Shown: positions 12,642 through 37,376 of the stretch, piece after piece
Layout: the number at the start of each line of letters is the position of its first letter
Numbering within the stretch: the first letter of the stretch is position 1
Assembly: GCF_001677475.2 (NCBI RefSeq)
Contig: NZ_CP015229.1
Source of the DNA: Escherichia coli
GTDB taxonomy: Bacteria > Pseudomonadota > Gammaproteobacteria > Enterobacterales > Enterobacteriaceae
DNA: 64,000 bases
Direction: 5' to 3' (one strand)
The notes under the pieces: generated by a model
Seen by the model: the letters and a program-made list of their open reading frames with translations, nothing else
Told to the model about the DNA's origin: nothing
Databases searched by the model: none
Position numbers and translations under genes: made by a program

Positions 12642-12645
12642 ACCA

Positions 12646-13356: not shown

Positions 13357-13418
13357 CGAATTTGACGGCTTTTAATTTTATCGGGGCACACTGTCTCCCC
13401 CCGCACGAGGAAAACACG

Positions 13419-15041: not shown

Positions 15042-15566
15042 ATGGTCATTAATTACAAGCAGTTACGAGAAAAACGAGAGCAGGTAAAGGAAAGTTTTCG
15101 CCGCAATGAAGATCTGACCCCGCTTGTACACCTTGCCCAGGGAATTGTTGATGCTTATGAAATCTCTCTGGAGCTGCCATCACAGACATGGACGGATAGC
15201 GACGGTAATCGCCAGCATTACGTTTCATGCGGACTGGAAACAACTGAAGGGTTTCGCAGAATGCCTTTATCTCAGATTCCTGCCGCTACCCCCAAAGCAA
15301 GGGGCGGCAATGATGAGCGAAAACTGATTTTCAGCATTGAGACAGTGGTTGACGACACACCTGGCGAAGTCGCGTTCGTGCATACTCCTCTTTCGATCGC
15401 AATGTATAACGATGAAATACAGGTTCGCGTTAATAATAATATCGTGCCACTTAAAGAAGGTAATTCACCATACACCACCGTTTGTGAAGCCATTCAATAT
15501 TACGTTCTCTCTGAAATTGATAATCTCAAGCCTGACGGCACCCAGAAAATGGTTCAACTCTGGTAA
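15042..15566 (+). CDS. hypothetical protein between cos region and portal gene
   Basis: 174-aa ORF convergent with Q; the ORF-track alternative start is 15003. Confidence 0.5.
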   Translation: MVINYKQLREKREQVKESFRRNEDLTPLVHLAQGIVDAYEISLELPSQTWTDSDGNRQHYVSCGLETTEGFRRMPLSQIPAATPKARGGNDERKLIFSIETVVDDTPGEVAFVHTPLSIAMYNDEIQVRVNNNIVPLKEGNSPYTTVCEAIQYYVLSEIDNLKPDGTQKMVQLW

Positions 15567-21887: not shown

Positions 21888-22087
21888 TGAAAGTAAAGGC
21901 ACTGGAAGGCGACACCGTGGATTCGCTCTGTTTCCGGTACTACGGCACGACGCAGGGCGTCACCGAAAAGGTGCTGGATGCCAACCCCGGACTCTGTCAG
22001 CAGGTATTTCTGGACGCCGGGCAGGAAGTGGAGATGCCGGAGCCGGAGAAGAAGAAACGAGAAATGATTCAGTTGTGGGGGGAGTAG
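21887..22087 (+). CDS. X: tail protein X, P2 gpX-like
   Basis: 66 aa; ATG overlaps L stop (ATGA). Confidence 0.7.
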   Translation: MKVKALEGDTVDSLCFRYYGTTQGVTEKVLDANPGLCQQVFLDAGQEVEMPEPEKKKREMIQLWGE

Positions 22088-22089
22088 CA

Positions 22090-22413
22090 GTGAGCACCAT
22101 TCAAACAGGGATCACAGAGCAGGTTATTGCGTGGCTCTTTGACCACCTGCCAACGGTGTATGCAGTAGGCGCGGCGGTCAGCATTTCCGCGCTGATGAGT
22201 CTTTATGACGGACGAACACTGGTTCAGACCGTAACGGGATCGCTGGCGTGCGGCGTTCTTGCCATGGCCGTGGCCGGGTCGTTGCGCTTCTTCGGGTTTC
22301 CTGAAGATGCCGTGACGTTTATCGGCGCATCAATCGGTTTTATGGGGGCAGAGAAAGCACGCGACAAGGTTATTGCGGCCTTTAATCGCAGGGTGAAGGA
22401 GAAGGACGAATGA
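22090..22413 (+). CDS. Y: holin (P2 gpY position)
   Basis: GTG start after RBS; about 107 aa with hydrophobic helices; precedes the endolysin. Confidence 0.6.
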   Translation: MSTIQTGITEQVIAWLFDHLPTVYAVGAAVSISALMSLYDGRTLVQTVTGSLACGVLAMAVAGSLRFFGFPEDAVTFIGASIGFMGAEKARDKVIAAFNRRVKEKDE

Positions 22414-22802
22414 GCAACACATTTAAATTCAGCAGCCGGAGCGAAATGAATTTGCAGGGCGTAAATCCTGATCTGGTGAAAGTGACCCGACGGGCACTGG
22501 AAATCTCGGAAGTGGATTTTGGTATCACCGAAGGGTTGCGCAGCCGTTACCGCCAGAAGCAACTTGTGGCCACAGGTAAGAGCCAGACCATGAACAGCCG
22601 CCACCTTACGGGGCATGCCGTGGATGTTGTGGCTTATATCGGCAGCCAGGTGTCATGGGAATGGCCGCTGTACGAAAAAATCGCAGCAGCATTCAGACAG
22701 GCCAGCCGGGAACTGAATATTCCGGTGGAATGGGGCGGCGACTGGAAGACCCTGAAAGACGGACCGCATTTTCAGTTACCACACGGAGCCTATCCGGCAT
22801 GA
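22410..22802 (+). CDS. endolysin, peptidase M15 (L-Ala-D-Glu endopeptidase) type
   Basis: 130 aa; HLTGHAVD ... GGDW ... DGPH motifs resemble T5-type endolysin rather than P2 lysozyme K. Confidence 0.7.
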   Translation: MSNTFKFSSRSEMNLQGVNPDLVKVTRRALEISEVDFGITEGLRSRYRQKQLVATGKSQTMNSRHLTGHAVDVVAYIGSQVSWEWPLYEKIAAAFRQASRELNIPVEWGGDWKTLKDGPHFQLPHGAYPA

Positions 22803-23206
22803 AGCTCTGGCCCACGCTGGGTGTCGCTTTCCTTCTGATTGCCGCATGGGGAACATCCATGCGTCTGTCGTGGTCGCTGGGCCGGGAGAACGCCAGAAAC
22901 GAAGCGCAGGCCAGCACCCTGAAAAGTACCGCCGACACCCTGAATATCATCAGCGCCGGGGTACAGGATATGCAGCAGGTGCTGGCGCAACTCCGCGTGG
23001 AAAATCAGCAACGCAATCAGGACGGAGAGGTAAGACGTGAACAGCTACGCAACGATATTGCAAAAGATGAATGCGCCCACGCTTTGCCTGACGCTCGTTT
23101 TACTGACAGGCTGCGCAGGCACGCAGAACGCGCCACTGCCAGCGCCGTCAGTCCGGCTTATACCGCAGACGCTGACCATACCGGTAACGCCTCCCCCCTT
23201 CCCTGA
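22799..23206 (+). CDS. lysB: i-spanin (LysB-like)
   Basis: 135 aa with N-terminal TM helix; follows endolysin. Confidence 0.65.
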   Translation: MKLWPTLGVAFLLIAAWGTSMRLSWSLGRENARNEAQASTLKSTADTLNIISAGVQDMQQVLAQLRVENQQRNQDGEVRREQLRNDIAKDECAHALPDARFTDRLRRHAERATASAVSPAYTADADHTGNASPLP

Positions 23207-23357
23207 TACTCCCACATGGGGAAATCTCGGTATATGGGGCGACCGCCTTCTGGATGCACTGGAAACCTGTAACGCGGATAAACGGGCCATTGAATTACTG
23301 GAACAGCGCAGGCTGCAACGACTGAACAACGAGGACAACAACCATGCTGAAAACTGA
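23037..23357 (+). CDS. lysC: o-spanin lipoprotein (LysC-like), embedded/overlapping in lysB
   Basis: Lipobox LLTGC; alternative-frame overlap with lysB; real start may be the internal Met (MNAPTL...). Confidence 0.6.
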   Translation: MNSYATILQKMNAPTLCLTLVLLTGCAGTQNAPLPAPSVRLIPQTLTIPVTPPPFPDTPTWGNLGIWGDRLLDALETCNADKRAIELLEQRRLQRLNNEDNNHAEN

Positions 23358-23811
23358 TTCCCTGCGTGAAGCCATGACCCGTTCATGCCGATGGTGTCAG
23401 GCCAACCCGGAAAAATTCACCATTTTCGTGGAGAGCGGCAACATTGAAACGACAGGAGAAACCCCATCGTTTGTTTACCGCTATCAGATGGTGATGTTTG
23501 TCATGGATTACGCCGGGGAGCTGGACGACCTCACGCTGCCGCTGCTGGCGTGGTTATCCGAAAATCAGCCACAGTTGTTGCTCAACCCGGAGCGTAATCA
23601 GGACATCAAATTCTCCGCCGTTATCAATGACGATGACAGCGCCGATCTCCTGTTTACGCTCCCCCTGCGGGAACGCGTTCGCATCACGCGCAGCAGTCAG
23701 GGCACACCGCAGGCAGAACACCTGCCGGAGCCAAAACCACGCCTGCCATCTTCCGAAGGCGACTGGTCGCATGTATTCCGGGATGTGACGTGGGGTGAAA
23801 GCGATGGATAA
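23344..23811 (+). CDS. R: tail completion protein, P2 gpR-like
   Basis: 155 aa; synteny. Confidence 0.75.
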   Translation: MLKTDSLREAMTRSCRWCQANPEKFTIFVESGNIETTGETPSFVYRYQMVMFVMDYAGELDDLTLPLLAWLSENQPQLLLNPERNQDIKFSAVINDDDSADLLFTLPLRERVRITRSSQGTPQAEHLPEPKPRLPSSEGDWSHVFRDVTWGESDG

Positions 23812-24439
23812 GGCATTCACCCGCGTGGATGAAACCTTTGAGGCCATCCGCGACAGCCTGAATCAGCAGGCCATCAATAACATCGCCAGAAAGCTGGCAC
23901 AGGATTTACGCCGCGCCCAGCAGGCGCGTATCCGGTCACAGAAAGCGCCGGACGGGACCGCGTGGACACCACGCAGACGCCGCGTAACCCGGATACAGGA
24001 ACGCATTCGCTTTATCTGGAATAACGAAGCACGCACGCTGAAAAACTGGCATCACGACACGGGGAAATACGGGCGAACCATTACCGGGTGGGATGAGGAT
24101 AAAAACAATATCCGCACGTTTTACCGGGATGACATCGACCGTTTTCTGGAAATACGCACCCGGCGCATCAACCAGGACAGCACAAAGCGCGTCCCCATGT
24201 TCGTAAAACTGCGCACCGCCCGCTACCTGAAAGCCCGTGCAGATGCTTCCGGTGTGACGGTGGGTTACAGCGGCGTGGCTGCACGTATTGCACGCGTTCA
24301 TCAGTTTGGTGAGCGCGATCAGGTTGCGCCGGGCATTTTCACCGATTACCCGGTACGTGAGCTGTTGGGCATCAGTCAGGCAGATGAACGCCTGATTTAT
24401 AACACGGTGCTGGGCCGGATTGCGGAGGCTGTACGGTGA
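23795..24439 (+). CDS. S: tail completion / virion morphogenesis protein, P2 gpS-like (longer than P2 S)
   Basis: 214 aa by synteny. Confidence 0.65.
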   Translation: MKAMDKAFTRVDETFEAIRDSLNQQAINNIARKLAQDLRRAQQARIRSQKAPDGTAWTPRRRRVTRIQERIRFIWNNEARTLKNWHHDTGKYGRTITGWDEDKNNIRTFYRDDIDRFLEIRTRRINQDSTKRVPMFVKLRTARYLKARADASGVTVGYSGVAARIARVHQFGERDQVAPGIFTDYPVRELLGISQADERLIYNTVLGRIAEAVR

Positions 24440-25017
24440 GCGCAGAACTCATGCGGCTGCTGAGCAACATCATCCGCACCGGGATCATCTCTGAAGTTGA
24501 TGAGGAATCCTGGTGCGTGCGCGTTCGCAGCGGCGAACTGGAAACAGGCTGGCTGCGCTGGAACACCACTCGCGCGGGAGCCTTCAATGTGTGGCTGCCG
24601 CCATCACCAGGCGAACAGGTGGTAATTGCCTGCATCGGCGGCAACCCGGAAACCGCCATGATAATTGGCAGCCTGTGGAGTGATGCCAGTCCGGCCCCCG
24701 GCAAAAGCCTGAAAGAAATCGTGATCAGCGCGCCGGACGGCGCGGTGTTCCGCTACGACGCGGACGCTGGCGCACTGAGCGCCAGCGGCATGAAAACGGC
24801 CACTTTACAGGCATCCGTCAGCGTGACACTGGATACGCCCGTCGTGGAATGCACAAACCTTCTGAGAACGGCGACGCTTGACGTCACAAAAGGAGGAAAG
24901 ATGAGCGGCAATATCACGCACAGCGGCGGCAACTTCACCTCAAACGGCATTACCGTGCATACGCATAAACACGGTGGCGTGAAAGGCGGCAGCGATTCGA
25001 CAGGAGGCCCGCAGTGA
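24436..25017 (+). CDS. V: baseplate spike protein, P2 gpV-like
   Basis: 193 aa; synteny. Confidence 0.8.
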   Translation: MSAELMRLLSNIIRTGIISEVDEESWCVRVRSGELETGWLRWNTTRAGAFNVWLPPSPGEQVVIACIGGNPETAMIIGSLWSDASPAPGKSLKEIVISAPDGAVFRYDADAGALSASGMKTATLQASVSVTLDTPVVECTNLLRTATLDVTKGGKMSGNITHSGGNFTSNGITVHTHKHGGVKGGSDSTGGPQ

Positions 25018-25364
25018 CAACCCGCTACACAGGAATGAACCCGGACGGAACGGGAAACCTGAACGATATGGAGCACCTGAAACAGTCAGTCAGGGACATC
25101 CTGACCACCCCGCTGGCAAGCCGGGTTATGCGACGGGAATATGGCAGCCTTGTGCCTGATTTGATTGACGAACCCATGAATAACACCACGCGTCTGCAAT
25201 GCATGAGTGCTGCCGTGATTGCACTGACACGATGGGAACCCCGCATTGCCCTGGACGCCATCGACGTTGTCTGGAAGGCAGGAGGCCGCGCCGGGGTGAC
25301 GCTGTCGGGCACTGTCATGCAGACCATGCAGAATGTTGAATTAACCATCACGCTGAGGGAGTAA
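25014..25364 (+). CDS. W: baseplate protein, P2 gpW-like
   Basis: 116 aa; synteny. Confidence 0.8.
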   Translation: MTTRYTGMNPDGTGNLNDMEHLKQSVRDILTTPLASRVMRREYGSLVPDLIDEPMNNTTRLQCMSAAVIALTRWEPRIALDAIDVVWKAGGRAGVTLSGTVMQTMQNVELTITLRE

Positions 25365-25367
25365 ATC

Positions 25368-26264
25368 ATGCCTGCCGTTGACCTTTCACAGTTACCGGAA
25401 CCCGCCATCATCGCGGAGCCTGACTTTGAGGCAATTCTGGCTGACACAAAGGCCATGATGATTGCGTCCTATCCCGCCGAACAGCGTGAAGCCGTCTCCG
25501 CCGCGCTGGAGCTGGAATCGGAACCCCTGAACGTTATCGCCCAGACAACAGCGTTTCGTGAAATGCTGTTACGCCAGCGGGTCAATGAGGGGGCACGCGC
25601 CTGCATGTTAAGCCACAGCGCCGGGACAGACCTGGACAACCTCGCGGGCAATATGAACACAAAGCGCCTGACCATCACTCCGGCAACGGATACCACCGAC
25701 GCGGTGATGGAGAGCGACACCTCGCTGAGACTGCGGGCGCAGCGGGCGTATGACGGCCTGAGTGTTGCAGGCCCGTCAGGCGCATACGAGTATTTTGCAC
25801 GCAGCGCCAGCGGTCTGGTGCGTGATGCGCGGGCCATCAGCCCGTCTCCGGCCTGTGTGACGGTTTCCATTCTGTCCACTGAAGGCGACGGCACAGCAAC
25901 GGAGGCGTTGCTTAATACCGTTCGCGCCGTTCTGAATGCAGAGGATACCCGCCCGGTGGCCGACCGCCTTACTGTACAGAGCGCCAGAATCGTGACATGG
26001 CGGCTGAATGCAAAACTGTACTTTTACCCCGGCCCGGAATCCGAACCTATTCTGGCCGCGGCGGAATCGTCATTCAGGAAGTGGCTGGCTGAACAGGGGC
26101 TTATCGGTCAGGACGTGGCGTTGTCCGCCATTGCTGCCGCACTGCATGTGCACGGTGTGCAACGCGTGGAGATAATCGAACCCACACAGAATATGGCCAT
26201 CAGCGACATACAGGCGGCGCGCTGTGAGTCATTCACCATCAGCGAAGGTGGACGCAATGAGTAA
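25368..26264 (+). CDS. J: baseplate protein, P2 gpJ-like
   Basis: 298 aa; synteny. Confidence 0.8.
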   Translation: MPAVDLSQLPEPAIIAEPDFEAILADTKAMMIASYPAEQREAVSAALELESEPLNVIAQTTAFREMLLRQRVNEGARACMLSHSAGTDLDNLAGNMNTKRLTITPATDTTDAVMESDTSLRLRAQRAYDGLSVAGPSGAYEYFARSASGLVRDARAISPSPACVTVSILSTEGDGTATEALLNTVRAVLNAEDTRPVADRLTVQSARIVTWRLNAKLYFYPGPESEPILAAAESSFRKWLAEQGLIGQDVALSAIAAALHVHGVQRVEIIEPTQNMAISDIQAARCESFTISEGGRNE

Positions 26265-26865
26265 TTCGTTGTTACCACCATCAGCCAGCAATTTCATGCG
26301 TTGTGCCGAAGCCGTCGGAACACGCATTACAGACATTCCGGTAGACCTCAACACGCTGTGGTCGCCGGACACCTGCCCGGTGCATCTGCTGCCTTATCTC
26401 GCCTGGGCGTTTTCCGTTGACCGCTGGGATCGCAACTGGCCGGAAGAGACAAAGCGACAGGTGATTCGTGATGCATGGCTGATACACCGACACAAAGGGA
26501 CCATCAGCGCACTGCGAAGAGCCGTGGAGCCTCTCGGCTACCTGATTGAAGTAAAGGAGTGGTGGCAACTCAACGAGGAGCCGGGAACATTTCGCATTGT
26601 TGTCGGAGTACTTGATCAGGGCATCACCGATGAAATGTATCAGGAACTTGAGCGCCTTATTGCGGATGCAAAACCAGTAAGTCGCCATCTGACGGGGCTG
26701 GCGATCAGCCTGAGTGTGAACGGAAAGATTTTCGTTGGTACGGGATGCTATCACGGCGATGCCCTGACGGTTTATCCCTACACCCCGGAGTCCATTATTG
26801 TCGAAGGGGATTATTTCCCTGCCCCGGCCATTCATTTAATTGATAATCTGAGAGTAAACGCATGA
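26257..26865 (+). CDS. I: baseplate/tail protein, P2 gpI-like
   Basis: about 202 aa; start overlaps J stop. Confidence 0.75.
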
Positions 26866-28346
26866 CAGTGAAATACTACGCCATTCTGACTAATCAGGGC
26901 GCGGCACGACTGGCTAACGCGACGATGCTCGGCAGTAAGCTGAATCTGACGCAAATGGCCGTTGGTGATGCAAATGGTGTGTTACCAACACCAGACCCTG
27001 CACAAACAAAACTGATTAACCAGAAACGCATTGCACCGCTGAATCTTCTGAGTATTGACCCGAACAACCAGAACCAGATTATCGCGGAGCAAATCATCCC
27101 TGAGAACGAGGGCGGATTCTGGATCCGTGAGATTGGTCTTTATGATGATGAAGGCGTACTCATTGCGGTGGCAAACTGCCCGGAAACGTACAAACCGCAG
27201 TTGCAGGAAGGCAGTGGACGCACCCAGACTATCCGCATGATTCTGGTTGTCACGAACACCGAAGCCATCACGCTGAAAATCGACCCGTCTGTGGTTCTGG
27301 CAACCCGCAAATATGTGGATGACAAAATCTCAGAGCACGAGCAGTCACGACGTCACCCGGACGCCTCGCTGACTGTAAAAGGTTTTACTCAGTTAAGCAG
27401 CGCAATTAACAGTGAATCAGAAACACTGGCCGCAACACCGAAAGCGGTTAAGGCTGCATATGACCTGGCTAACGGGAAATATACCGCCCAGAACGCCACC
27501 ACAACACAAAAAGGGATTGTTCAGCTCAGTAGCGCCACAAACAGCACGTCTGAAACGCTGGCAGCGACACCAAAAGCTGTTAAGGCGGTAATGGATGAAA
27601 CGAGCAAGAAAGCACCATTAAACAGCCCGGCACTGACCGGAACGCCAACAACACCAACAGCGCCACAGGGGACTAATAGTACCCAGATCGCAAGCACGGC
27701 TTTCGTTATGGCCGCGATTGCCGCACTTGTAGATTCGTCACCTGATGCACTGAACACGCTGAACGAACTGGCTGCGGCGCTGGGCAATGACCCGAATTTT
27801 GCGACCACCATGACTAACGCGCTTGCGGGTAAGCAACCGAAGGATGCCACCCTGACGGCGCTGGCGGAGCTTGCTACATCAGCAGATAAACTCCCATATT
27901 TTACAGGGGCAGATCGTGCCGCGTTAACCGCGTTGACAAGTGTTGGACGTGCCATTCTTGGTAAAACCAGCACTCAGGGAGTTCTTGATTACCTTGGTTT
28001 GGGAGAAGCGGCTAAAAGGAATGTAGGGACAGGGGCGAATCAGATACCTGATATGGGTAGCTTCACGCTTTCTGTTTCAGGTACTGGATATCAAAAATTA
28101 CCATCAGGTTTTATTCTTCAGTGGGGATCAATCGGCGCACCAGGCATTGCACAGGATGTAGTAACCCATTTCCCGATTGCATTTCCAAACAGATGTCTGC
28201 GTGTTTTGGTCTCACAAGACTACACACCAGATAGCGGGGCTGTTGGTTATATTGCCTGTGCAGGTTTTAGTCCCGACCCGGTTAAATTTATATCCAGAGC
28301 CAGTACTCCTGGCCTCGGCGCTTCATTTTTAGCGTTAGGCTGTTAA
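26862..28346 (+). CDS. H: tail fibre protein, P2 gpH-like; C-terminal variable part lies in an invertible segment
   Basis: 494 aa; conserved N-terminus [20 protein letters not shown]; repeated [11 protein letters not shown] motifs. Confidence 0.85.
27982..28007. repeat. hix/gix-like crossover site inside gene H (ttcttgattaccttggtttgggagaa)
   Basis: Resembles recalled hixL; a 15-bp core ttggtttgggagaag recurs inverted at 29815-29840. Confidence 0.6.
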
Positions 28347-28367
28347 TTTAGCTATATGGAGTGAAAA

Positions 28368-28808
28368 ATGAATTACATATATTCCGCGACTACAAACTCT
28401 TTCTATCCGCTGGAGATGAAAGAGGATTACACTCAAGCTGACTCATGGCCAGATGATGCTGTTGAAGTTGATGAGCAAGTGTATATTGAGTTTTCCGGAT
28501 TACCGCCGAAAGGAAAAATCCGTATCGCTGGAGAAAATGGTTTTCCTGCATGGTCTGAAATTCCACCACCAACACATGAGGAACAAATTGCTGCAGCCGA
28601 ATTGGAGAAGCAGCAATTGATTAATCAGGCCAACGATTATATGAACAGTAAACAATGGCCTGGTAAAGCGGCTATTGGTCGTCTGAAAGGTGAGGAACTG
28701 GCGCAATATAATTTGTGGCTGGATTATCTGGACGCACTGGAACTGGTTGATACCTCCAGTGCTCCAGATATTGAATGGCCTACGCCTCCGGCAGTTCAGG
28801 CCAGATGA
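28368..28808 (+). CDS. G: tail fibre assembly chaperone (P2 gpG-like)
   Basis: 146 aa directly after H. Confidence 0.8.
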   Translation: MNYIYSATTNSFYPLEMKEDYTQADSWPDDAVEVDEQVYIEFSGLPPKGKIRIAGENGFPAWSEIPPPTHEEQIAAAELEKQQLINQANDYMNSKQWPGKAAIGRLKGEELAQYNLWLDYLDALELVDTSSAPDIEWPTPPAVQAR

Positions 28809-29376
28809 CATCCGGCGCGGTGCTGGTATCTGTTGCCGTCACCGCGTCAATGTAATCCAGCACAGCGTTAAGTCTGGTTGTTTCTGCCTGCGTCAGTTTA
28901 CGTCCGGCCTGTAATTTCAGCTGAATCAGACTAATGGAAGCCATTGCTGCATCAATCAGTGACTGGCGCTGTGCTTCTGCCGTTTCTACTGCGGCACCGT
29001 GTTGTGCCTCAGTATCTGTCACCCATTTCTCACCATCCCATTTATCATATGGCGTTAACGGTGAAAGCGTGACATAACCGTTTTTGATGGCACCGATATA
29101 ATCCACTGTAACAGCAGCACCATTTTCGATTGAGTAAACAGTCTCATTGCGATGGTCTTCTTCATGGCTCCATCCCTTACCTGTAAATACTGCCACTCTT
29201 CCCGGAATGTTTTTGCCAGGGTCAATTCCAGTGGAACAGGCGGGCATACTTACGCCAGTATTAATATATTCATCAGACCAGCCCGTATACTCAGATGTTT
29301 CAGCATCATAATAAAAACAACGCATATCGCCCGGCACTGTAGCCAGTCCATTTTCATCAAAAATTGGGGTCATCAT
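28780..29376 (-). CDS. alternative tail fibre assembly chaperone (tfa'), convergent with G
   Basis: 198-aa minus-strand ORF; C-terminus ...IWPELPEA parallels G C-terminus ...IEWPTPPA. Confidence 0.75.
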   Translation of the reverse strand: MMTPIFDENGLATVPGDMRCFYYDAETSEYTGWSDEYINTGVSMPACSTGIDPGKNIPGRVAVFTGKGWSHEEDHRNETVYSIENGAAVTVDYIGAIKNGYVTLSPLTPYDKWDGEKWVTDTEAQHGAAVETAEAQRQSLIDAAMASISLIQLKLQAGRKLTQAETTRLNAVLDYIDAVTATDTSTAPDVIWPELPEA

Positions 29377-29832
29377 TTAGCCCTCACCAGAAAGTTAAAT
29401 GCAATATTTCGCGGTCTGACGGCAACAAAATTCACACCATCACCCACAGAGTTACTGGTGAAATTAAATCGTGAAAATCCTGGCTGATTTCCGGCGATAC
29501 CATCATGAAAATTAATTGCGTGGCCCGCACCATCGCCTATATTCCCGGCAAACTGAGAAAAGTTTGTAGCTGCCTGCCAGCTTAATAATTCGCGACCACC
29601 GTCTACACCTCGCCCGTCATCCCAGATACGAATGAAATCACCGCGGGCTTCAGGTAATACCAGCGAAGGAAACACTTTCGCCAGCACAGGGTAATCAGTG
29701 GCAGAAAATTTCGCCCCGTTGAACTTCAAAAACACCATACCGGACCAGCTGTCGATTACAGTATTTGGCATTGCCGCGGAGGGCCAGAAGAACGGAACGC
29801 CAATAGCTGGAGTACCTTCTCCCAAACCAACG
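29373..29832 (-). CDS. alternative tail-fibre C-terminal variable segment (promoterless; fuses to H after inversion)
   Basis: Minus-strand ORF reading ...NVGLGEGTPAI... from the hix-like site, paralleling H ...[11 protein letters not shown]. Confidence 0.65.
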
Positions 29833-29840
29833 TTTAAGAA
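29815..29840. repeat. hix/gix-like crossover site (inverted copy)
   Basis: Reverse complement carries ttggtttgggagaag. Confidence 0.6.
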
Positions 29841-29897
29841 AATGCAGAGATTACGGCTAACTGGCATCATCCCCGGTTTTTATTCAGGGGATCCATC

Positions 29898-30497
29898 ATG
29901 CTTATTGGCTATGTCCGCGTATCAACAAATGACCAGAATACAGAATTGCAGCGTAACGCGCTGGAGTGCGCAGGATGTGAACTGATTTTTGAAGATAAAA
30001 TCAGCGGAACGAAATCAGCCAGACCGGGATTGAAAAAACTACTCAGAACGCTATCAGAAGGAGATACGCTGGTTGTCTGGAAGCTGGACAGACTGGGCAG
30101 AAGTATGAAACACCTGATCACGCTTATTGAGGAATTGCGGGAAAAAGGGGTTAATTTCCGTAGTCTGACGGACAGCATCGACACATCAACACCCATGGGG
30201 CGTTTCTTTTTTCACGTCATGGGGGCTTTAGCCGAAATGGAACGTGAATTAATTGTAGAGCGTACACTGGCCGGACTGGCAGCAGCACGCGCACAAGGAC
30301 GCATTGGCGGACGTCGCCCGAAGTTGACAAAAGAACAACACGAGCAAATAGCGAGGCTGATTAAAAACGGTCATGACAGGAAACAACTGGCGATCATTTA
30401 CGACATCGGCATATCGACGATTTATCGCTATCACCCTGCAGGCGATATACAGGCTGAAGAAACAACCAGGCAGACTCAGGAAAATGAAAACCGCTAA
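29898..30497 (+). CDS. pin: serine DNA invertase, Hin/Gin/Pin/Cin family
   Basis: 199 aa; N-terminal GYVRVSTNDQ catalytic-serine motif and C-terminal HTH; adjacent to invertible tail-fibre segment. Confidence 0.9.
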   Translation: MLIGYVRVSTNDQNTELQRNALECAGCELIFEDKISGTKSARPGLKKLLRTLSEGDTLVVWKLDRLGRSMKHLITLIEELREKGVNFRSLTDSIDTSTPMGRFFFHVMGALAEMERELIVERTLAGLAAARAQGRIGGRRPKLTKEQHEQIARLIKNGHDRKQLAIIYDIGISTIYRYHPAGDIQAEETTRQTQENENR

Positions 30498-30518
30498 TCT
30501 GACCATTAGCGGTTTTGC
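30489..30518 (+). terminator. intrinsic terminator after pin (ccgctaat...attagcgg + tttt)
   Basis: Hairpin followed by T run. Confidence 0.55.
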
Positions 30519-30523
30519 GTTAA

Positions 30524-31018
30524 TCAAAACAGCCCTTTAACGGAGCTGGCCGCGCTGTTAAGGGATGATGTGACCTTATCTTTGAAGCCGGACAGCATAT
30601 CACTGAATGATGAGGATTGCAGGCGCTCCCGCAAATCCTCATCACAGCGTTCAAGAGTCAGTGAAAATTCTATCTTTTTCGCCTTACCGTAGCGATCAAA
30701 CTCGGAACGGGTCGTATTCGTTTCAGTCAGTACATACATGCCGTAAATTTGCCCGACACCATCAATCAGAGGCCAGGGGCGTCCTGTATATGCCTGCGTG
30801 GTCAGCAACGAAAGCGACACTTCGCCACCTGTAATTTCAGGATAAAGCACGCCGGAAAGCACAATGCGATCATCACCTGCACCGATATACTGCCAGCTTG
30901 CTGAACGGTTAACGCGTTCATTTTTCACATGCCGCCAGCTTTTGTTTTGCTGTAACTGCTGATGCGGCAGTGTGCGCAGCTCAAAAACAAACATGCCGTA
31001 GATCATCATCATGACCAT
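30524..31018 (-). CDS. U: tail protein, P2 gpU-like
   Basis: 164 aa; last gene of the minus-strand FI-FII-E-T-U block. Confidence 0.7.
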   Translation of the reverse strand: MVMMMIYGMFVFELRTLPHQQLQQNKSWRHVKNERVNRSASWQYIGAGDDRIVLSGVLYPEITGGEVSLSLLTTQAYTGRPWPLIDGVGQIYGMYVLTETNTTRSEFDRYGKAKKIEFSLTLERCDEDLRERLQSSSFSDMLSGFKDKVTSSLNSAASSVKGLF

Positions 31019-31024
31019 GACTCC

Positions 31025-33868
31025 TCAATCTTTATCGTAAAAACTGCCACGTCCGGCACGGGCGCGCCGTTCCATCTCTGCCCTGACCATTTCACCGACC
31101 AGTTTCGCCAGTTCGCGGGGATTCTGCGTAACAACGTTATGCAGATGAACATGAATTTCACCGCCAAATCCGGAGACAGCAGGCTCCCGATTACGGGAAG
31201 CTGCAGGAACTGATGCCACTGGCGATCGTATGGCCTCCGCCACCGGGCGGGAGCTGGCCGCAACAACAGGGACCAGCGCCGGAGGCAGCGGAGCCGGGAC
31301 TACGGGTGTGATATTAATTGCGGGGGCAGGCTTACTGACCTGCGCAATCTTCCGCTCCTGCCACTCCCCACGAACAGCCAGTGCGCGGGGCAGGTTCTTA
31401 AAGACAATATCGCCGGGGCCAATGCGTTTTTTCGTCTCATCAACCAGCTTACCTGTGTTATCAGCAATTTTGCTGAGTCTGCGTAGCGTCCCGGTATTGC
31501 TGTCTGTGAGCGGTTTGTTGTCTTTGGGTTTATCACCTCCGGTGCCATTGCCATTTTCCACAGGCTTCGGCGGATTGATTTTCGCAAGGTCCCCCTGAAG
31601 CAAGGCAACCTTGTCCTGAAGAATGGCCGCACGCTGTGCGTCTTCGATTTTCTTGCGCGCCTTTTCCGCTTCATCCGGAAGGACGCCAAGTTTTTCAAGT
31701 ATCCACGCCAGCGTATCCAGTAGCATTTTTGCAGGTGTCAGAACAAGCTGTAACGCACCGCCAAGAACGTTACCGAATATCTCGCCAGCACTGGTACATT
31801 TATCCAGCGTTTCCTTGCTGGACTCCATCGGTGACAGCAGCGATTTAAACCAGTTAAACACCTGGCTGATCCCGCTTCCGATTGCGTCAAAAACAGGACC
31901 AAACCGTTCAAAGGTTTCGCGCAACGGGGTCAGCCTTTCCATAATCCCGCTGAACACCCCGGCATAAAACGCCTTGATGGGTTCCCAGTATTTCCAGATG
32001 AGAACCGCCGCAGCCACAAACGCGGCAACAATCAATCCGACCGGACTGAACAGCGCCCCGATAGCGCCACCCAGCAACGAGATGGAACCTGTTACCATTC
32101 CCCATAGTGCTGGCAGCACCCTGACGACATTCATTGATCCGGTCAGGAGAGAAAAACCAAGACGTAACGTGGCCAGTTTCCCGTGAAGCACGCCAATAAC
32201 CAGCGACAACGAGCCAATCGTTGCAGTCATTGCCAGCAACGCACCGCCTGCTATCAGTAGCTGGCGCGTCAGTGCCGGATGGGCCTGCGCCAGCGCCGTC
32301 ACCCTTGATACCACCCGCGTGAGCCACTGCGTGACAGAACGCAGCGGGCCGTCAATCAGATCTGCAATGCGGATGCGCAACCCTTCCCATGCACTGCCGA
32401 GTGATTTCAGATCGCCATCAAGGTTGTTGGCCATAACCTTTGCCGTGCGTTCAGCCTCACCGCGTGCGCCTTCAAGTTCTTTTCTCAGTTTGGGTAAGGA
32501 ACCGTCACCTGCCGCATCAACGAGGGCCATAAACGATGTGAAAGCCTCTTCCCCGGCGATGTCCTTAAAGAAGGATACCCGGTCAACTTCCCCGTATTTG
32601 CGGGTGGCTTTATAAAGGTCGGCCAGCACATCCTCCATCGGGCGCATTTTGCCGTTCGCGTCAGAAACTGCCACACCAAGCTCTTTCAGCGCCTCTGCTG
32701 CTGCCTTTGGCGGTGATGCCAGACGAGCCAGGCTGGCACGCATTGCCGTCCCGGCATCACTCCCTCTGATACCCATATTCGCCAGCACGCCCGCCATCGC
32801 TGCGGCCTGCTCCAGCGATATTCCCAGCTTACCCGCCACCGGACCTGCATATTTCATGGTTTCGCCCAGTGCGCGAAGGTCAGTGTTGGTACGGGTAAAC
32901 GCTGCGGTGAGTGTGTCACCAACCCGGTCCATCTGGTCAGCAGAAAGGCCGAACTGCGTCAGGATATTTGAGCCAATATCCGCCGTCTCGCCGAGATCCA
33001 TACCGCCAGCCGTTGCCATGCTCAACACGCCGGGAAGCGCAGCCTGAATGGCCTGCGGTGTGAAGCCAGCCATTGCAAGAAATGCCTGTCCACTGGCGGC
33101 ATCGCCTGCGGTGAACTGCGTTTCAGAGCCAAGTTTTAACGCCTGCTCACGCAGCGCCTTAAACTGTGGGCTGTTCTGGTCGATTCGCGTCAGTGCCTGA
33201 ACGCGGGACATCTCTTTCCCGAACCCGATCGCAGGCTGCAAAAAACGCCCGGCAGCATAGCCGCCAGCCGCTGCCGCACCAATTGCCAGCGCACCACCTG
33301 TTTTCAGTTTTCCAGCAGTTTCCTGCGCGCGCGAATACCGCTCACGCGCCCGCGTTACACGCGCAAGCGTCTGCCGTTCGCGTTCAAGCTGGTTGTTGTA
33401 CTGTTCGGTGCGTCTGATGGCCTGCTGGATGGTGTTATCGCTGCCTGTCAGGGAAATGCCGTGGCGTTTCAGCTCTCCGCCAAGCTCCCGCATTTTCTGA
33501 ATTTCCCGTGTGCGCGATTCATTCAGGCGTTCAAGCCGGGTGCTTAACTGCTGCATCAGCTTTTGTTGTTTTTCGCTGAGCACTGTACCCGTGCGTTGTA
33601 ACTGATTAAGGGCGTTAAGCTGGCGTCGTGCTTTCACGATGCCCGCATCCGCTTTACTGACAGCGTCACGGGCGCGCTCAAACGAACGCGCCTGACGCTC
33701 GAGATTTTTGATCGCCCCCTGCGTTCGCTGGATGGAGTCACCAAACTGCCCCATCAGGCGGCGGGCGTTTTCGGCAGGCCGGGTCAGCCTGTCAACGGCG
33801 CTGAAAGCGACCCGGATATCAAGAGTCTTCATTGTCTGCATTCCCGCTGCGAAGTGCCGCCCGCTCAC
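31025..33868 (-). CDS. T: tail tape measure protein, P2 gpT-like
   Basis: 947 aa, helical/Gly-Ala-rich; synteny. Confidence 0.85.
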   Translation of the reverse strand: MSGRHFAAGMQTMKTLDIRVAFSAVDRLTRPAENARRLMGQFGDSIQRTQGAIKNLERQARSFERARDAVSKADAGIVKARRQLNALNQLQRTGTVLSEKQQKLMQQLSTRLERLNESRTREIQKMRELGGELKRHGISLTGSDNTIQQAIRRTEQYNNQLERERQTLARVTRARERYSRAQETAGKLKTGGALAIGAAAAGGYAAGRFLQPAIGFGKEMSRVQALTRIDQNSPQFKALREQALKLGSETQFTAGDAASGQAFLAMAGFTPQAIQAALPGVLSMATAGGMDLGETADIGSNILTQFGLSADQMDRVGDTLTAAFTRTNTDLRALGETMKYAGPVAGKLGISLEQAAAMAGVLANMGIRGSDAGTAMRASLARLASPPKAAAEALKELGVAVSDANGKMRPMEDVLADLYKATRKYGEVDRVSFFKDIAGEEAFTSFMALVDAAGDGSLPKLRKELEGARGEAERTAKVMANNLDGDLKSLGSAWEGLRIRIADLIDGPLRSVTQWLTRVVSRVTALAQAHPALTRQLLIAGGALLAMTATIGSLSLVIGVLHGKLATLRLGFSLLTGSMNVVRVLPALWGMVTGSISLLGGAIGALFSPVGLIVAAFVAAAVLIWKYWEPIKAFYAGVFSGIMERLTPLRETFERFGPVFDAIGSGISQVFNWFKSLLSPMESSKETLDKCTSAGEIFGNVLGGALQLVLTPAKMLLDTLAWILEKLGVLPDEAEKARKKIEDAQRAAILQDKVALLQGDLAKINPPKPVENGNGTGGDKPKDNKPLTDSNTGTLRRLSKIADNTGKLVDETKKRIGPGDIVFKNLPRALAVRGEWQERKIAQVSKPAPAINITPVVPAPLPPALVPVVAASSRPVAEAIRSPVASVPAASRNREPAVSGFGGEIHVHLHNVVTQNPRELAKLVGEMVRAEMERRARAGRGSFYDKD

Positions 33869-34357
33869 GCCAGCTAACCACTTCGCCGGGCGTCATCATG
33901 AAGATTTCGGCGGGCGACCAGTTAAAAATGGCGGCGATATCTGCCACCAGATCTTCGATGTGCTCAAAGCACACCAGGGTAATTACGCTGCCGTCTCCTG
34001 CACGCTCTTCGCGCCAGAGTCTGGCTCGCTCATAAAATTTACAGCCACAGCGCACAACTGAATAAAATCGCGTGACGACATTTTTTTAATCATCACTTCA
34101 TCCAGTCGTGGCGAGGTCACGCGAGGCAACAGCGTAAACATGGTATCCGCTTTCAGATTCAGCACATCAGACAGCGACAGACCACGCAGGGATCCAGCCT
34201 GCTCAATAGCCCCGGTGATCTCCACATACGTGATTTTTTCGCCACCACGCTCAATTGGTCGGGTCAGTTTTACGCCACGTTCGACAGCCATATCCTCACC
34301 TGCCGTCACATCATCCGCCACGGTGTTATTCCGGGTTTCAGTATCGATGTCTTTCAT
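33819..34357 (-). CDS. tail assembly chaperone E+E' (predicted -1 programmed frameshift product)
   Basis: A7 slippery run (plus-strand ttttttt at 34081-34087) inside E; the -1 frame stays open to 33819 and overlaps the T start. Confidence 0.55.
33983..34357 (-). CDS. E: tail assembly chaperone, P2 gpE-like
   Basis: 124-aa ORF between tube and tape measure genes. Confidence 0.7.
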   Translation of the reverse strand: MKDIDTETRNNTVADDVTAGEDMAVERGVKLTRPIERGGEKITYVEITGAIEQAGSLRGLSLSDVLNLKADTMFTLLPRVTSPRLDEVMIKKMSSRDFIQLCAVAVNFMSEPDSGAKSVQETAA

Positions 34358-34412
34358 CAGTTGTCTCCTTTTCAGTCAGAGGCGACGCACTGCGCCGCCT
34401 GCATATTACTTA

Positions 34413-34925
34413 TCAGCCAAGCCCAAGCGCGGAACGGATACGGTCAGGCACAATGTCCTTGCCGTCCTTCCGGTAGATGTGGTTCAACAGGTCGATTTCC
34501 CACAGCGGGCGATCGTTAACGCTCAGCTTGTAGTAGGTGTTTTTGACAGCGTAAGTGTGTGATGTGGCTTCGCCCTGTTTGGCTTCCCCCATATCAATTT
34601 CCGTCACACGCCCACGCATCTCGATTTCATACAGATCGCTTTCTGCATCGGTGTAGTATTCACCCGCAAAACGCAGCAGCGTGCCGTCAATCGTGCCGCC
34701 ATATTTAAGGAACAGCGCACGAACAGCTCCCCCCATGACAAAACTCGCATCAAGCGCGGAGTCGTCCAGACCGAGATCAATACTTACCGCCCCCATCATG
34801 CCACCACCACGATAGCTGTCGGTTTTGCGCGTCAGTTTGGGCGGCGTGACGGATGTCACTTTACCCACTTCGTTTTCACCATCCACAAACAACGTAAAAA
34901 AGCGAAGATGTTTTGGTACAGCCAT
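34413..34925 (-). CDS. FII: tail tube protein, P2 gpFII-like
   Basis: 170 aa; synteny. Confidence 0.85.
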   Translation of the reverse strand: MAVPKHLRFFTLFVDGENEVGKVTSVTPPKLTRKTDSYRGGGMMGAVSIDLGLDDSALDASFVMGGAVRALFLKYGGTIDGTLLRFAGEYYTDAESDLYEIEMRGRVTEIDMGEAKQGEATSHTYAVKNTYYKLSVNDRPLWEIDLLNHIYRKDGKDIVPDRIRSALGLG

Positions 34926-36109
34926 CAGGCACCTCCCAGCACCGCAAATGCGGGACCAAAGAATTCATCAGTAAACGTCTGGTAAAGCTCCATGTCTTCC
35001 AGCGGGGGAACAGGCGTATATTTGTAGCGAATACGCACACGTCCCTGACGTAAATTCGTGGTGCCGTTATCCACCACGTCATACCAGCACTCCGCGCCAA
35101 TCAGTTTCCCGGCAGTAACCAGCGAATCCAGTTTTGCCCTGATGGCACTGATAACATCCTTCACGTTCGCAGGCGTCAGTGGACTGTCGATGGTTTCAAA
35201 CTGCGCTTCCGCAATTGAATCAGCCAGCACCTGTGCGGTTCGGGTATACACCTCAAAGATGTAGGCGTTCGTTTCCGGTGTGCGGTTGCCCCAGAAGCGG
35301 AACCCGTTGCGACGAATAATGGTCGTGATTTCTTTGTTGTTGAGGCTGTTGGCATCGCTGTCTTCGGCCTGCAACGACCAGAACACATGCCTCGACATCC
35401 CCAGCACATTTTTAACCGGAACGTTGGACAGTGATTTGTGCCATCCCTGCTCATGGTCAATGTACGCACGAAGGCCGCACGCATAGGCAGGCGCGGGGAA
35501 CGTTTCGTTTTTGCCACTTTTCGGGTTGTAGGCGATGAAGTCTGGCCATAAGAGCATCACCTCACGTTCGTTGAATTTCTGGCGGTAGGTAATTGCCTCG
35601 GCCATCGTGTTACAGCCATGACATGAGGCATACACAAACGCGCGCAGTTTACCCGCAATCACGCACAGGGATTTTGTCACCGCCTCCGTGTCCAGCTCCG
35701 GCGCGGCCAGAATACGCGGACGGTATCCGATGCTTTCATCCTGCTCTGCAACAAGCAGCGCATACATCCCCGTATAGCTGCCGTCAGATTCAGAACCACC
35801 GATAACCAGTTGATCCTGCGTTTTTCCGTCTTCTTCTTTGTGTTCAGCCACGCGAACGACGATCACCTTTGTGCTCACCTGGTCTGCGATGGCCTTAAGC
35901 GCACGATAAAGCGTCCCCGTTGTTCCGCATTTTCCCAGCACGTCATTGACGCGGGTCAGCAGTGTGGGCTTGTTCAGCGGGAACAGCTCCGCGTCCGCAT
36001 CATCTGCCGTTGCCACGATACCGATAACACTGGAATCAACATCATTAATCGCTGTTACCAGGTCGGTACTTTCCGTAACACGGGCACCATGAAAACGAGT
36101 TTCACTCAT
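34925..36109 (-). CDS. FI: contractile tail sheath protein, P2 gpFI-like
   Basis: 394 aa; motifs GWHKSLSNV, IRRNGFRFWGNRT, YTRTAQV, YTPVPPLE match recalled P2 FI. Confidence 0.9.
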   Translation of the reverse strand: MSETRFHGARVTESTDLVTAINDVDSSVIGIVATADDADAELFPLNKPTLLTRVNDVLGKCGTTGTLYRALKAIADQVSTKVIVVRVAEHKEEDGKTQDQLVIGGSESDGSYTGMYALLVAEQDESIGYRPRILAAPELDTEAVTKSLCVIAGKLRAFVYASCHGCNTMAEAITYRQKFNEREVMLLWPDFIAYNPKSGKNETFPAPAYACGLRAYIDHEQGWHKSLSNVPVKNVLGMSRHVFWSLQAEDSDANSLNNKEITTIIRRNGFRFWGNRTPETNAYIFEVYTRTAQVLADSIAEAQFETIDSPLTPANVKDVISAIRAKLDSLVTAGKLIGAECWYDVVDNGTTNLRQGRVRIRYKYTPVPPLEDMELYQTFTDEFFGPAFAVLGGA

Positions 36110-36266
36110 AGCTTCAGCCCCTTGTATCCGTTAAATGATTCGGCAACAATCATCACCCACCACGCGCGTAATCTCACCCCTGCGCCGTTCTCCCGCCACG
36201 GCGACAACAAAAAGCAGTAATCCCCTCCGCACGCACATGCGACCATGCCGCACAGGGAGGGAACAG

Positions 36267-37376
36267 ATGACCGACACCACCATGCAATTGCTCAGTCAGG
36301 GCACAGACCCCGTGAAAATGCCGGATTTTGATATTCTCGCGGAGGGTAAAACGCTGTCAGGCGTGGCAGAGCGCCTGATGAGCCTGTCACTGACCGACAA
36401 CCGGGGATTTGAGGCGGACCAGCTCACCATCACGCTGGATGATGCGGATGGTCAGTTGCAGCTACCGCCACGGGGCGTGCGCCTGACGGTTCTCATTGGC
36501 TGGAAAGGAGAACCGCTGACAGAAAAAGGCACTTACATTGTTGATGAAATCGCTCACGAAGGACCGCCGGACAGGCTGACTGTTTCAGCCAGAAGCGCAG
36601 ATTTTCGGGATGAATTTAACGTTAAACGTGAGGTGTCCTGGCATGATGTGACCGTTGAGCGTGTGGTATCCGCCATCGCTCATCGGTACGGTCTGAAACC
36701 GCAAATCAGCGAAATGCTGATGGATATCGAAATCGACCACGCCGACCAGACCGAAGAAAGCGACATGTCCTTCCTTACGCGCATGGCGGAAATGCTGGGC
36801 GCAATCACCACGGTAAAAAGCGGCAATCTGTTATTCATCATGCCAGGTGGTGGCGTGAACGCACAGGGCCAGCCGTTGCCATCGTTCGCCATCACACGCA
36901 GCAGCGGCGATCGCCATCAGTTCCGCATTGCTGACCGCGAGGCGTATACGGGGGTGCGCGCCTACTGGCTTGATCTTAACTATGGGAAAAAGAAAAAAGT
37001 CAGCGTGAAACGCCGCAAACCACCCAAACCGAAAAAGGAGAAAAGCAGCAGCCGCGAAGGTGACTATATGGAAGGTGCGGAAGGCAACGTGTTTGTGTTA
37101 CGCAAGACTTATCAGAACGAGCAGGCAGCAAGACGCGCAGCGGCGGCAAAGTGGCAGCAGCTACAACGCGGAGCCGCATCATTTTCCATCACGCTGGCAC
37201 GTGGACGCGCAGAACTCTACCCCGAAATGCATGGCACAGTAACAGGATTTAAAAGCGAGATTGATAATCAGGACTGGATTATTGCAAAAGCCGAGCACAC
37301 CATTGATAACAGCGGCTTTACCACGCAGCTTGAGCTTGAGGCAAAAATCCCGGAATGGATAGCAGAAACAGAGTGA
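36267..37376 (+). CDS. D: tail protein / late control protein, P2 gpD-like
   Basis: 369 aa; MSLSLTDNRGFEADQLTITLDD..., DHADQTEESDMSFLTR, GFTTQLELE match recalled P2 gpD. Confidence 0.9.
   Translation: MTDTTMQLLSQGTDPVKMPDFDILAEGKTLSGVAERLMSLSLTDNRGFEADQLTITLDDADGQLQLPPRGVRLTVLIGWKGEPLTEKGTYIVDEIAHEGPPDRLTVSARSADFRDEFNVKREVSWHDVTVERVVSAIAHRYGLKPQISEMLMDIEIDHADQTEESDMSFLTRMAEMLGAITTVKSGNLLFIMPGGGVNAQGQPLPSFAITRSSGDRHQFRIADREAYTGVRAYWLDLNYGKKKKVSVKRRKPPKPKKEKSSSREGDYMEGAEGNVFVLRKTYQNEQAARRAAAAKWQQLQRGAASFSITLARGRAELYPEMHGTVTGFKSEIDNQDWIIAKAEHTIDNSGFTTQLELEAKIPEWIAETE

Follow-up and report, generated by a model that had tools for sequence, protein, structure and literature searches.

The tail-fibre locus described here lies in the window, the 64-kb stretch of Escherichia coli DNA that was analysed as a whole, within a prophage of the P2 family (P88-like, Xuanwuvirus; Peduoviridae) that spans about 2680-39503. 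All P2 late genes are present together with int, A and ogr, and the prophage appears to be complete and intact. Its late gene set is of P2 type, but FI-FII-E-T-U runs opposite to V-W-J-I-H-G and the invertase gene separates the two blocks; this gene order is that of P88 (NC_026014) and E. coli 1303, and across the invertase/gpU region the DNA is 82-84% identical to P88-group phages. At the locus itself the order is tail-fibre gene H, a chaperone gene, a convergent second chaperone gene and an alternative H tip, both on the minus strand, and a serine invertase gene on the plus strand (Table 1), a layout proposed in an earlier note on this DNA and borne out by the ORFs, Pfam and PHROGs.

Table 1. 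Features of the tail-fibre locus, in window coordinates
Feature	Position	Strand	Remarks
Hc, constant part of H	26862..27993	+	Residues 1-377 plus first bases of codon 378
Left site, pix/gix-like, 26 bp	27982..28007	+	TTCTTGATTACC-TT-GGTTTGGGAGAA; central dinucleotide 27994-27995
Invertible segment	27994..29830	.	1,837 bp between central dinucleotides of both sites
Hv, tip currently fused to H	27996..28346	+	116 aa, stop included; Gp53-like_C domain
Tfa, short chaperone	28368..28808	+	146 aa, cognate to Hv; phrog_188 (tail fiber assembly), E 2e-66; PF02413 Caudo_TAP
Tfa', long alternative chaperone	28780..29376	-	198 aa; phrog_105, E 1e-83; Caudo_TAP_N and Caudo_TAP
Hv', silent alternative tip, collar-type	29373..29828	-	151 aa plus stop; at present promoterless and without the H N-terminus
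Right site, 26 bp	29817..29842	-	Minus-strand reading TTTTCTTAAACG-TT-GGTTTGGGAGAA; central dinucleotide 29829-29830
Short leader	29829..29870	-	MMPVSRNLCIFLNV; opens the frame into the tip held by the invertase-proximal slot (ORF 29373-29870); analogue of the e14 stfE leader
Serine DNA invertase	29898..30497	+	199 aa; outside the invertible segment
Putative recombinational (Fis-dependent) enhancer	29916..29987	+	5' end of the invertase gene; homologous to the annotated P1 cin enhancer (nt 19-90)
Terminator-like hairpin	30487..30516	.	12-bp stem, consensus match only; between the convergent invertase gene and gpU tail gene

The H ORF (26862-28346, plus strand, 494 aa) combines a constant part, in which Pfam detects a Phage_tail_fib N-terminal domain and two Phage_fiber_2 repeats, with a tip whose match to PF21882 covers H residues 412-494 (E 1.3e-13). 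The collar-type label of the alternative tip rests on its matches to the tail collar fibre groups phrog_3100 (E 2e-52) and phrog_523 (E 7e-42), the match to the Collar Pfam domain being weak and not significant (E 0.14). Fusion of tip to constant part is in frame both ways, in the current H and after inversion in silico, and a separate Tfa/Caudo_TAP chaperone comes after each tip, with the flipped H joined to Tfa' by an ATGA overlap. The short Tfa is the predicted chaperone of the current orientation and presumably the one now expressed; the two chaperone genes are convergent, and their last 29 bp overlap. Inversion in silico yielded an uninterrupted H of 529 aa that is identical at 525/529 positions to an annotated protein of one comparison locus (L004), and an exact-sequence look-up of this flipped H returned no record, near-identical proteins (525/529) being those that exist. 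NCBIfam assigned none of the fibre and chaperone proteins to a curated family, and its matches to the invertase were all below threshold.

The invertase had been assigned to the Pin/Hin family, and the assignment holds. Pfam places a Resolvase domain (PF00239) at residues 3-135 (E 1.1e-51) and an HTH_7 domain (PF02796) at residues 138-181 (E 8.6e-13), the ORF is of full length, and the catalytic Ser9 as well as R65, R68, H106 and M114 are the same as in Gin, Cin and PinE. Identity is 87% to the P88 invertase, 83% to PinE, 76% to Cin and 74% to Gin, and the alignment to the Gin structures 4m6f and 3uj3 in the PDB is gap-free (E about 1e-92), for 4m6f over residues 1-187 with E 4e-92. The putative enhancer begins 86 bp away from the centre of the nearest site, and the stretch in question is 79-81% identical to P1 and Mu versus 65-66% elsewhere in the gene, a difference partly explained by conservation of the protein. 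Among synonymous codons, 13/21 in this stretch are identical to those of Mu versus 40/111 in the rest of the gene, and 10/21 versus 39/112 to those of P1, which is a modest excess. Fis sites may lie in this part of the gene, as suggested by homology within a protein-coding stretch.

Inverted hix-like sites had also been claimed for the two ends of the segment; the left one stands as placed, while the right one is in register at 29817-29842 and not at 29815-29840, an offset of 2 bp. The left site falls inside the H coding sequence (codons ...LDYLGLGE). Common to both, in inverted orientation, is TTGGTTTGGGAGAA, which comprises the core plus the inner half-site, and the core dinucleotide is TT at each when read from outside to inside. 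The top inverted-repeat pair of the region has its arms here (27991-28008 and 29816-29833; 18 nt, 94% complementary), and the exact 15-mer TTGGTTTGGGAGAAG has two copies only in the 64 kb, one per strand (27994-28008 and 29816-29830); we estimate the chance of an exact inverted 15-mer pair in 3.1 kb at about 0.005. With cix and gix query sequences taken from the annotated P1 and Mu phage records, the two sites were the best matches on both strands of the window to P1 cixR/cixL and Mu gix; the left site matched cixR at 20/26 positions and the right site at 19/26, compared with 18/26 for the best unrelated match and 17 for seven more. The core and inner half are identical to those of the e14 P-segment sites (14/14), the right site agrees at 25/26 positions with the invertase-proximal e14 site and at 26/26 with the invertase-proximal site of the P2-like element of E2348/69, and the published e14 inverted repeat TTGGTTTGGGAGAAGG (PMC12529663) has an exact match at 29815-29830. 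The distance from the right site centre to the invertase ATG is 68 bp, and 67 bp in Mu and e14.

When the entire window was scanned for half-sites and for complete sites, no third recombination site of the kind seen in multi-segment systems such as Min or the 3-IR EPEC locus came up, and no further core copies within 3 mismatches were found in the region; the half-site scan of the 64 kb gave 24/24 for the two real sites and 18/24 for the next best. Shufflons in the strict sense depend on Rci, a tyrosine recombinase, and on several sfx sites, so the label of shufflon given earlier is inaccurate for a locus with exactly two sites and a serine recombinase, without Rci or a third site. The R64-type shufflon (Rci) is alike in that adhesin C-termini are swapped by DNA inversion, but it has a tyrosine recombinase with multiple sfx sites and segments, and acts on the pilus adhesin pilV.

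Focusing on the state of the segment in other genomes, we compared orientations across strains. In seven loci (L004, L005, L011, L013, L015, L016 and L018) the interior is reversed, and colinearity of the flanks extends to 28008 on the left and resumes at 29816 on the right. Hc is colinear at 98-99.9% up to 28008 in loci of both orientations, and in the five flipped loci that share the window's H gene, colinearity is lost exactly at the repeats (28008 / 29816). Among 10 public loci with a 100%-identical invertase protein, the gp53-like tip is on H in 4 and the collar-type tip in 6. The in-silico flipped junction was found in NZ_CM143728.1 (99.7% over 995 nt) and the unflipped one in NZ_CP115358.1 (99.5%), while the Hv cassette occupies the silent slot in L013 (94.9%) and E2348/69 (96.6%). 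Outer half-sites stay put among the loci, and a G/A polymorphism of the inner half-site occurs on either side. The junction of the silent copy reads ...NVGLGE-GTPAI now and ...YLGLGE-GTPAI once inverted, and with the breakpoints at 28008 and 29816 this agrees with the earlier proposal that the two H C-termini diverge at the sites. Inversion as a means of switching the fibre tip is likewise upheld by the open 529-aa frame and by the loci in both orientations. A mutated invertase or sites, absent similarity on alignment, or a single orientation only, any of which the earlier note had counted against its reading, were not what we observed: enzyme and sites are intact, the sites are the top cix/gix matches in the window, and both orientations occur across strains (4 versus 6 of the 10 loci above).

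The same comparisons bear on whether the segment still flips. It could be the remnant of an ancestral invertible segment that no longer does so, with the strain differences reflecting old events or the replacement of cassettes by homologous recombination. Tip and chaperone cassettes have clearly been swapped between phages, since 28545-29061 (approximately 430-560 bp, the 3' ends of the chaperone genes) is the only stretch common to e14, pro483, L012, L019 and L020, whose tips differ. A sigma-70 scan upstream of the invertase gene detected no strong consensus promoter, which would also fit a loss of activity. Invertase genes are known for weak expression. Against such a remnant stand the full-length invertase ORF with its catalytic residues and the two intact 26-bp sites, equal or nearly equal to those that flip experimentally in e14 and E2348/69; flipping in clonal cultures is on record for e14 and, in E2348/69, for the Mu-like as well as the P2-like prophages (PMC4272514). 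Moreover, both orientations occur among loci with 100%-identical invertases and flanks of 98-99.9% identity, with breakpoints exactly at the 18-bp repeat, a pattern unexpected from general recombination. We therefore regard a segment that has ceased to flip as highly improbable; with its anatomy, sites and enzyme intact, the switch looks functional.

Overall, the locus is very probably a two-site inversion switch of the serine-invertase (Pin/Gin/Cin/Hin) family, set in the tail-fibre operon of a P2-family (P88-like) prophage that appears intact. In the proposed mechanism, the invertase encoded just beyond the segment would bind the two 26-bp sites while host Fis sits on the enhancer near the start of the enzyme's own gene; both sites would be cut at the central TT/AA dinucleotide, and the strands rotated and religated, so that 27994-29830 becomes inverted. 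Codons 1-378 of H and the promoter of the late operon would not move; as the segment now lies, they would lead into the gp53-like tip and short chaperone, and once it is inverted, into the collar-type tip and long chaperone. A lysogen population could thereby release virions with two receptor-binding tips, a form of bet-hedging on host range. The dependence on Fis and the enhancer, the exact cleavage position and activity in the window's strain are parts of this mechanism that we infer. Host-range switching by inversion is suggested by the precedent of Mu and P1 and by phage P88, for which host range is set by the tail-fibre C-terminus (PMC5285337).

Tail-fibre switches of the Pin/Gin type are already known, and this is an ordinary example. 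Judged by sequence, its closest match among inversion systems is the e14 P segment with PinE of E. coli K-12, reportedly described by Plasterk and van de Putte in 1985. The two have the same order of fibre, tfa, convergent tfa', fibre tip' and an invertase outside the segment, a segment of 1.8 kb, a 29-bp overlap of the chaperone genes (tfaP/tfaE in e14) and the same core and inner half of the sites (TT-GGTTTGGGAGAA), the invertase-proximal outer half differing at 1/12 positions; the 3' halves of the e14 tfa genes are 90% identical in DNA to those of the window. However, e14 is a lambdoid remnant, defective and with a short stfP, and its tip sequences are unlike the window's, whereas the window has an apparently complete P2-family prophage in which the tip is joined to the 378-aa constant region of a P2-type H. 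The P2-like inversion of the EPEC strain E2348/69 (NC_011601 2977580-2979467), for which phase variation has been shown experimentally (PMC4272514, Table S1), shares with the window, at 96.6% identity and in the opposite orientation, the gp53-like tip, the short tfa and the 3' portion of the long tfa, but it lies in a truncated prophage remnant with tail genes in the standard P2 orientation, and its invertase is only about 73% identical.

The Mu G segment (Gin) and the P1 C segment (Cin), both named earlier for comparison along with e14, follow the same logic of a constant S/H N-terminus with two tip-plus-chaperone cassettes, and have the invertase outside the segment and an enhancer in its 5' end, the window's being putative. 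Their 26-bp sites match the window's at 18-20/26 positions, with 67-68 bp from site to ATG, but the segments are longer (3 and 4.2 kb), the tips are unrelated, the inverted repeats are longer, and the phages belong to other families. P88 has the same overall architecture, its FI-U tail genes likewise following the invertase on the opposite strand, yet its H is much longer (764 aa) and its sites are without a match within 2 mismatches of the 14-mer. In pro483 (Peduovirus) the sites are near-identical (TTCTCGCATACC-TT-GGTTTGGGAGAA and TTTTCATAAACG-TT-GGTTTGGGAGAA) and the invertase is 81% identical, whereas the tail genes keep the P2 orientation.

The short leader upstream of the alternative tip raises a further alternative, in which the switch mainly serves the host: the slot ORF would express a free-standing tip that blocks the receptors of other phages, and inversion would toggle superinfection exclusion. 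The leader followed by GLGE (MMPVSRNLCIFLNV-GLGE) parallels that of e14 (MMPFACYFFIFINV-GLGE), and the predicted slot protein, at present of 165 aa and collar-type, would become after inversion a 130-aa protein of leader plus gp53-like tip, analogous to StfE2 of e14, which is reported to inhibit T2 adsorption (PMC12529663); RefSeq annotates a 132-aa gp53-like CDS of this kind in L004. The slot, however, now holds the collar-type rather than the gp53-like tip, and conservation of the leader is not independent evidence because the leader coincides in part with the outer half-site and with the region upstream of the invertase gene. The prophage also looks complete, unlike e14, so that the classical role of switching the virion tip suffices. 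A switch mainly for the host's benefit is therefore unlikely. We hold as similarly doubtful the broader proposal that the invertase-proximal slot is not silent, its leader permitting a free-standing tip that coats or blocks receptors, so that a flip would change both virion host range and superinfection exclusion; other Pin-type invertases could drive such a flip in trans because the sites match those of e14.

If the two-site tail-fibre switch is read as above, the prophage could display two tips, of which the annotation of this genome gives only one, and the "partial" tail-fibre gene adjoining the invertase would be a functional alternative cassette and no pseudogene. Importance beyond annotation is little; uses lie in predicting the host range of the induced phage, in guarding against misassembly or mis-annotation at the locus, and in cataloguing swappable tip/chaperone cassettes for engineering P2-type phages or tailocins. 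Among the prophage cargo genes, PADLOC gave no match. The FI-U tail block (30524-36109), on the strand opposite to that in P2, was considered as a second, larger invertase-mediated inversion and rejected: the weak gix-like matches at 30520-30545 (16-17/26) and 36070-36095 (15) are at background level, and its orientation is typical of the lineage, since the viable phage P88 has the same order.

A classical tail-fibre inversion switch is the best explanation of this locus. On this model a Pin-type invertase would invert a 1,837-bp segment, probably with dependence on Fis and an enhancer, and a fixed late promoter and the constant region of tail-fibre gene H would be read into either of two tip-plus-chaperone cassettes. 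Every element named in the earlier note (H, two chaperones, an alternative H C-terminus and a recombinase) was found, with tfa and tfa' overlapping by 29 bp; its term shufflon fails in the strict sense, because the recombinase is of the serine type and there are two sites. The system belongs to the Hin/Gin/Cin/Pin inversion systems, and the element that hosts it is a P88-like Peduoviridae prophage.

Coordinates of the inversion locus and the prophage integrase
Feature	Position	Strand	Details
Integrase	3730-4872	-	
H tail-fibre gene	26862-28346	+	494 aa
Left 26-bp site	27982-28007		TTCTTGATTACC-TT-GGTTTGGGAGAA
Short Tfa chaperone	28368-28808	+	146 aa; Caudo_TAP
Long Tfa' chaperone, convergent with Tfa	28780-29376	-	198 aa; Caudo_TAP_N + Caudo_TAP
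Alternative H C-terminus (coding)	29376-29828	-	
Right 26-bp site	29817-29842	-	minus-strand reading TTTTCTTAAACG-TT-GGTTTGGGAGAA
Recombinase (invertase)	29898-30497	+	199 aa

The arms of the strongest inverted repeat in this region, 27991-28008 and 29816-29833, hold, one per strand, the only two copies of the exact 15-mer TTGGTTTGGGAGAAG in 64 kb. With the gix site annotated in the Mu record and the cixL/cixR sites annotated in that of P1 as references, we scored all 26-mers of the window on both strands; against cixR the two sites outranked every other 26-mer (20/26 and 19/26, versus 18/26 for the best unrelated 26-mer and 17 for seven others). The left hix-like site lies exactly where it had been proposed, while the right one had been placed 2 bp out of register. 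Comparison with the Mu, P1 and e14 segments showed the e14 P segment of E. coli K-12 to be the closest known system: its sites, much closer than those of P1 and Mu, share the core and inner half-site with the window, and its invertase-proximal outer half-site differs by one base. The published e14 inverted repeat (TTGGTTTGGGAGAAGG / CCTTCTCCCAAACCAA; PMC12529663) occurs exactly at 29815-29830. A half-site scan found no third recombination site, which makes this a simple two-site switch.

The invertase carries Pfam Resolvase and HTH_7 domains, and its residues 1-187 align without gaps to Gin crystal-structure sequences (E about 1e-92). Identity is 87% to the P88 invertase, 83% to PinE of e14, 81% to that of pro483, 76% to Cin of P1, and 74% to Gin of Mu. 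Ser9 and the remaining conserved residues examined are all present, including H106 and M114, positions at which Fis-independent Gin mutants occur; Gin structure 4m6f has V at position 114. Positions 29916-29987, homologous to the annotated P1 cin enhancer (nt 19-90), are 79-81% identical to P1/Mu, compared with 65% across the remainder of the gene, with an excess of identical synonymous codons relative to Mu (13/21 versus 40/111), and 68 bp separate the site centre from the invertase ATG (67 bp in Mu and e14). A putative Fis enhancer here is thus supported, but not conclusively, since the invertase is most conserved in the residues that this same stretch encodes.

In-silico reverse complementation of 27994-29830 yielded an uninterrupted 529-aa H whose stop overlaps the Tfa' start (ATGA), and which agrees at 525/529 residues with a tail protein annotated in E. 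coli CFIAFB20190157. The two tips are unrelated to each other: the current one has a Gp53-like_C domain (PF21882, E 1e-13), and the alternative one is assigned by PHROGs to collar-type tail fibres (E 2e-52 and 7e-42), with no significant hit to Pfam Collar. Each tip has its own Caudo_TAP chaperone, the longer of which adds Caudo_TAP_N. Tail-fibre inversion affects host range in Mu and P1. From this precedent, and because host range in P88 is determined by the C-terminal part of its tail fibre (PMC5285337), we infer a host-range effect of the switch. A role serving the host is unlikely; here the invertase-proximal slot, with its own leader ORF, would make a product acting like e14 StfE2, an inversion product that a 2025 paper claims to block T2 adsorption (PMC12529663). 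The short leader ORF in that slot (MMPVSRNLCIFLNV) does parallel the e14 stfE leader, but its expression is only putative and the prophage looks complete.

Inversion was judged by comparison across strains, in natural relatives. As one piece, the 995-nt flipped junction matched NZ_CM143728.1 (99.7%) and NZ_CM129860.1 (97.5%), and the present-orientation junction matched NZ_CP115358.1 (99.5%). Exact look-up of the 199-aa invertase returned ten distinct public loci, four with the gp53-like tip fused to H (including the window's source genome) and six with the collar-type tip. In pairwise BLAST, flanks were colinear to 28008 and from 29816 on, with the interior reversed; breakpoints were identical in five of the six flipped loci (L011, L013, L015, L016 and L018), and in the sixth, L014, where the H gene differs, the left-hand match extends only to 27329. 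Inverted matches covered 27991-29416 in L013 (94.9%), 28746-29833 in L011 (96.3%) and 28545-29833 in L015 and L016 (96.5%), and both window cassettes occur elsewhere in the opposite slot. That the locus is a frozen relic, its orientation differences arising by cassette exchange, is very improbable: such exchange is evident, with only 28545-29061 (3' ends of the tfa genes) widely common to loci, yet it leaves unexplained why loci that share an identical invertase have their breakpoints at an 18-bp repeat. Among the compared loci each outer half-site keeps to its own side, and an inner half-site G/A polymorphism (GGTTTGGGAGAA versus GGTTTAGGAGAA) appears now on the H side, now on the invertase side (L004, L005, L012, L015, L016, L019), as expected from exchange at the central dinucleotide; the polymorphism is a natural marker consistent with crossover at the central TT.

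The switch was correctly recognised in the earlier note but is already known: experiments have shown such inversion in P2-like prophages. In clonal cultures, paired-end sequencing and PCR found mixed orientations for e14 (51% forward), for a Mu-like prophage and for two P2-like loci of EPEC E2348/69 (PMC4272514). The flipping E2348/69 locus NC_011601 2977580-2979467 carries 27991-29061 in the opposite orientation at 96.6% identity, and its invertase-proximal site is identical to the window's (26/26). Sequenced E. coli often carry copies that are identical or nearly so, and 330 blocks of the collection are indexed for the invertase protein.

Within the locus, the chaperone genes' overlapping 3' halves (28545-29061) are conserved, at about 88-92% identity, in e14, in pro483 and in many loci, with flanking tips swapped, and look like a homologous-recombination hotspot for cassette exchange; they contain a coding-derived inverted repeat (28718-28735 / 28844-28861; LDYLDA/LDYIDA motif).

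The P2-family prophage (~36.8 kb) lies in Escherichia chromosome, with ihfA-pheST-rplT-infC-thrS and katE/espL1/pfkB in the flanks, and is bracketed by a 25-bp exact direct repeat (AAAGAAAAAAGGCCGCAGAGCGGCC; 2680-2704 and 39479-39503) that adjoins the ihfA 3' end and is likely attL/attR. Among 5,425 complete E. coli genomes, the best matches to the flanks are 98.8% and 98.4% identical; this level in the core genes of 39400-64000 suggests a host lineage poorly represented in that set. The espL1 ORF (47359-49257, 632 aa) is open, whereas it is frameshifted in strain 1303. Gene order follows the E. coli 1303 prophage (97.4% identical over 22000-34000, the 12 kb around the locus; 96.7% for the 3.8-kb query 26800-30600) and phage P88 (genus Xuanwuvirus), and 9,485 bp around the locus match GCA_025810455.1 contig ABIYSL010000002.1 at 100%. 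Tail genes U, T, E/E', FII and FI (30524-36109, minus) oppose V-W-J-I-H-G and D (36135-37376, plus), an arrangement absent from P2 and pro483 but shared with P88 and the 1303 prophage, and thus typical of the Xuanwuvirus lineage; no convincing gix-like sites were found at the block's ends. The long gpD ORF opens at 36135, but because its PHROG match begins only at residue 43 the true start is probably near residue 46, which would leave a divergent intergenic region of ~150 bp.

Two cargo slots gave no PADLOC match. One, at 37503-38261 in a low-GC stretch between gpD and ogr, is a second variable slot encoding a 252-aa alpha/beta-hydrolase (esterase/lipase-like PHROG matches) where 1303 has an AAA-family ATPase. 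In the other (13021-15566), which separates the ParM-like partition genes from the portal gene, there are four small ORFs, none matching the TOPRIM and hypothetical-protein genes that 1303 carries at this position; one 111-aa product has a ClpX-type zinc-finger-like C-terminus (CSFC...CNEC; phrog_6797, phrog_12435), and the slot may be a hotspot, so far uncharacterised, for accessory or defence genes. Downstream of replication endonuclease A, the stretch 11682-12957 carries genes for a ParM-like segregation ATPase and its partition partner, as in the 1303 prophage, a pair unusual for an integrated P2-type phage.
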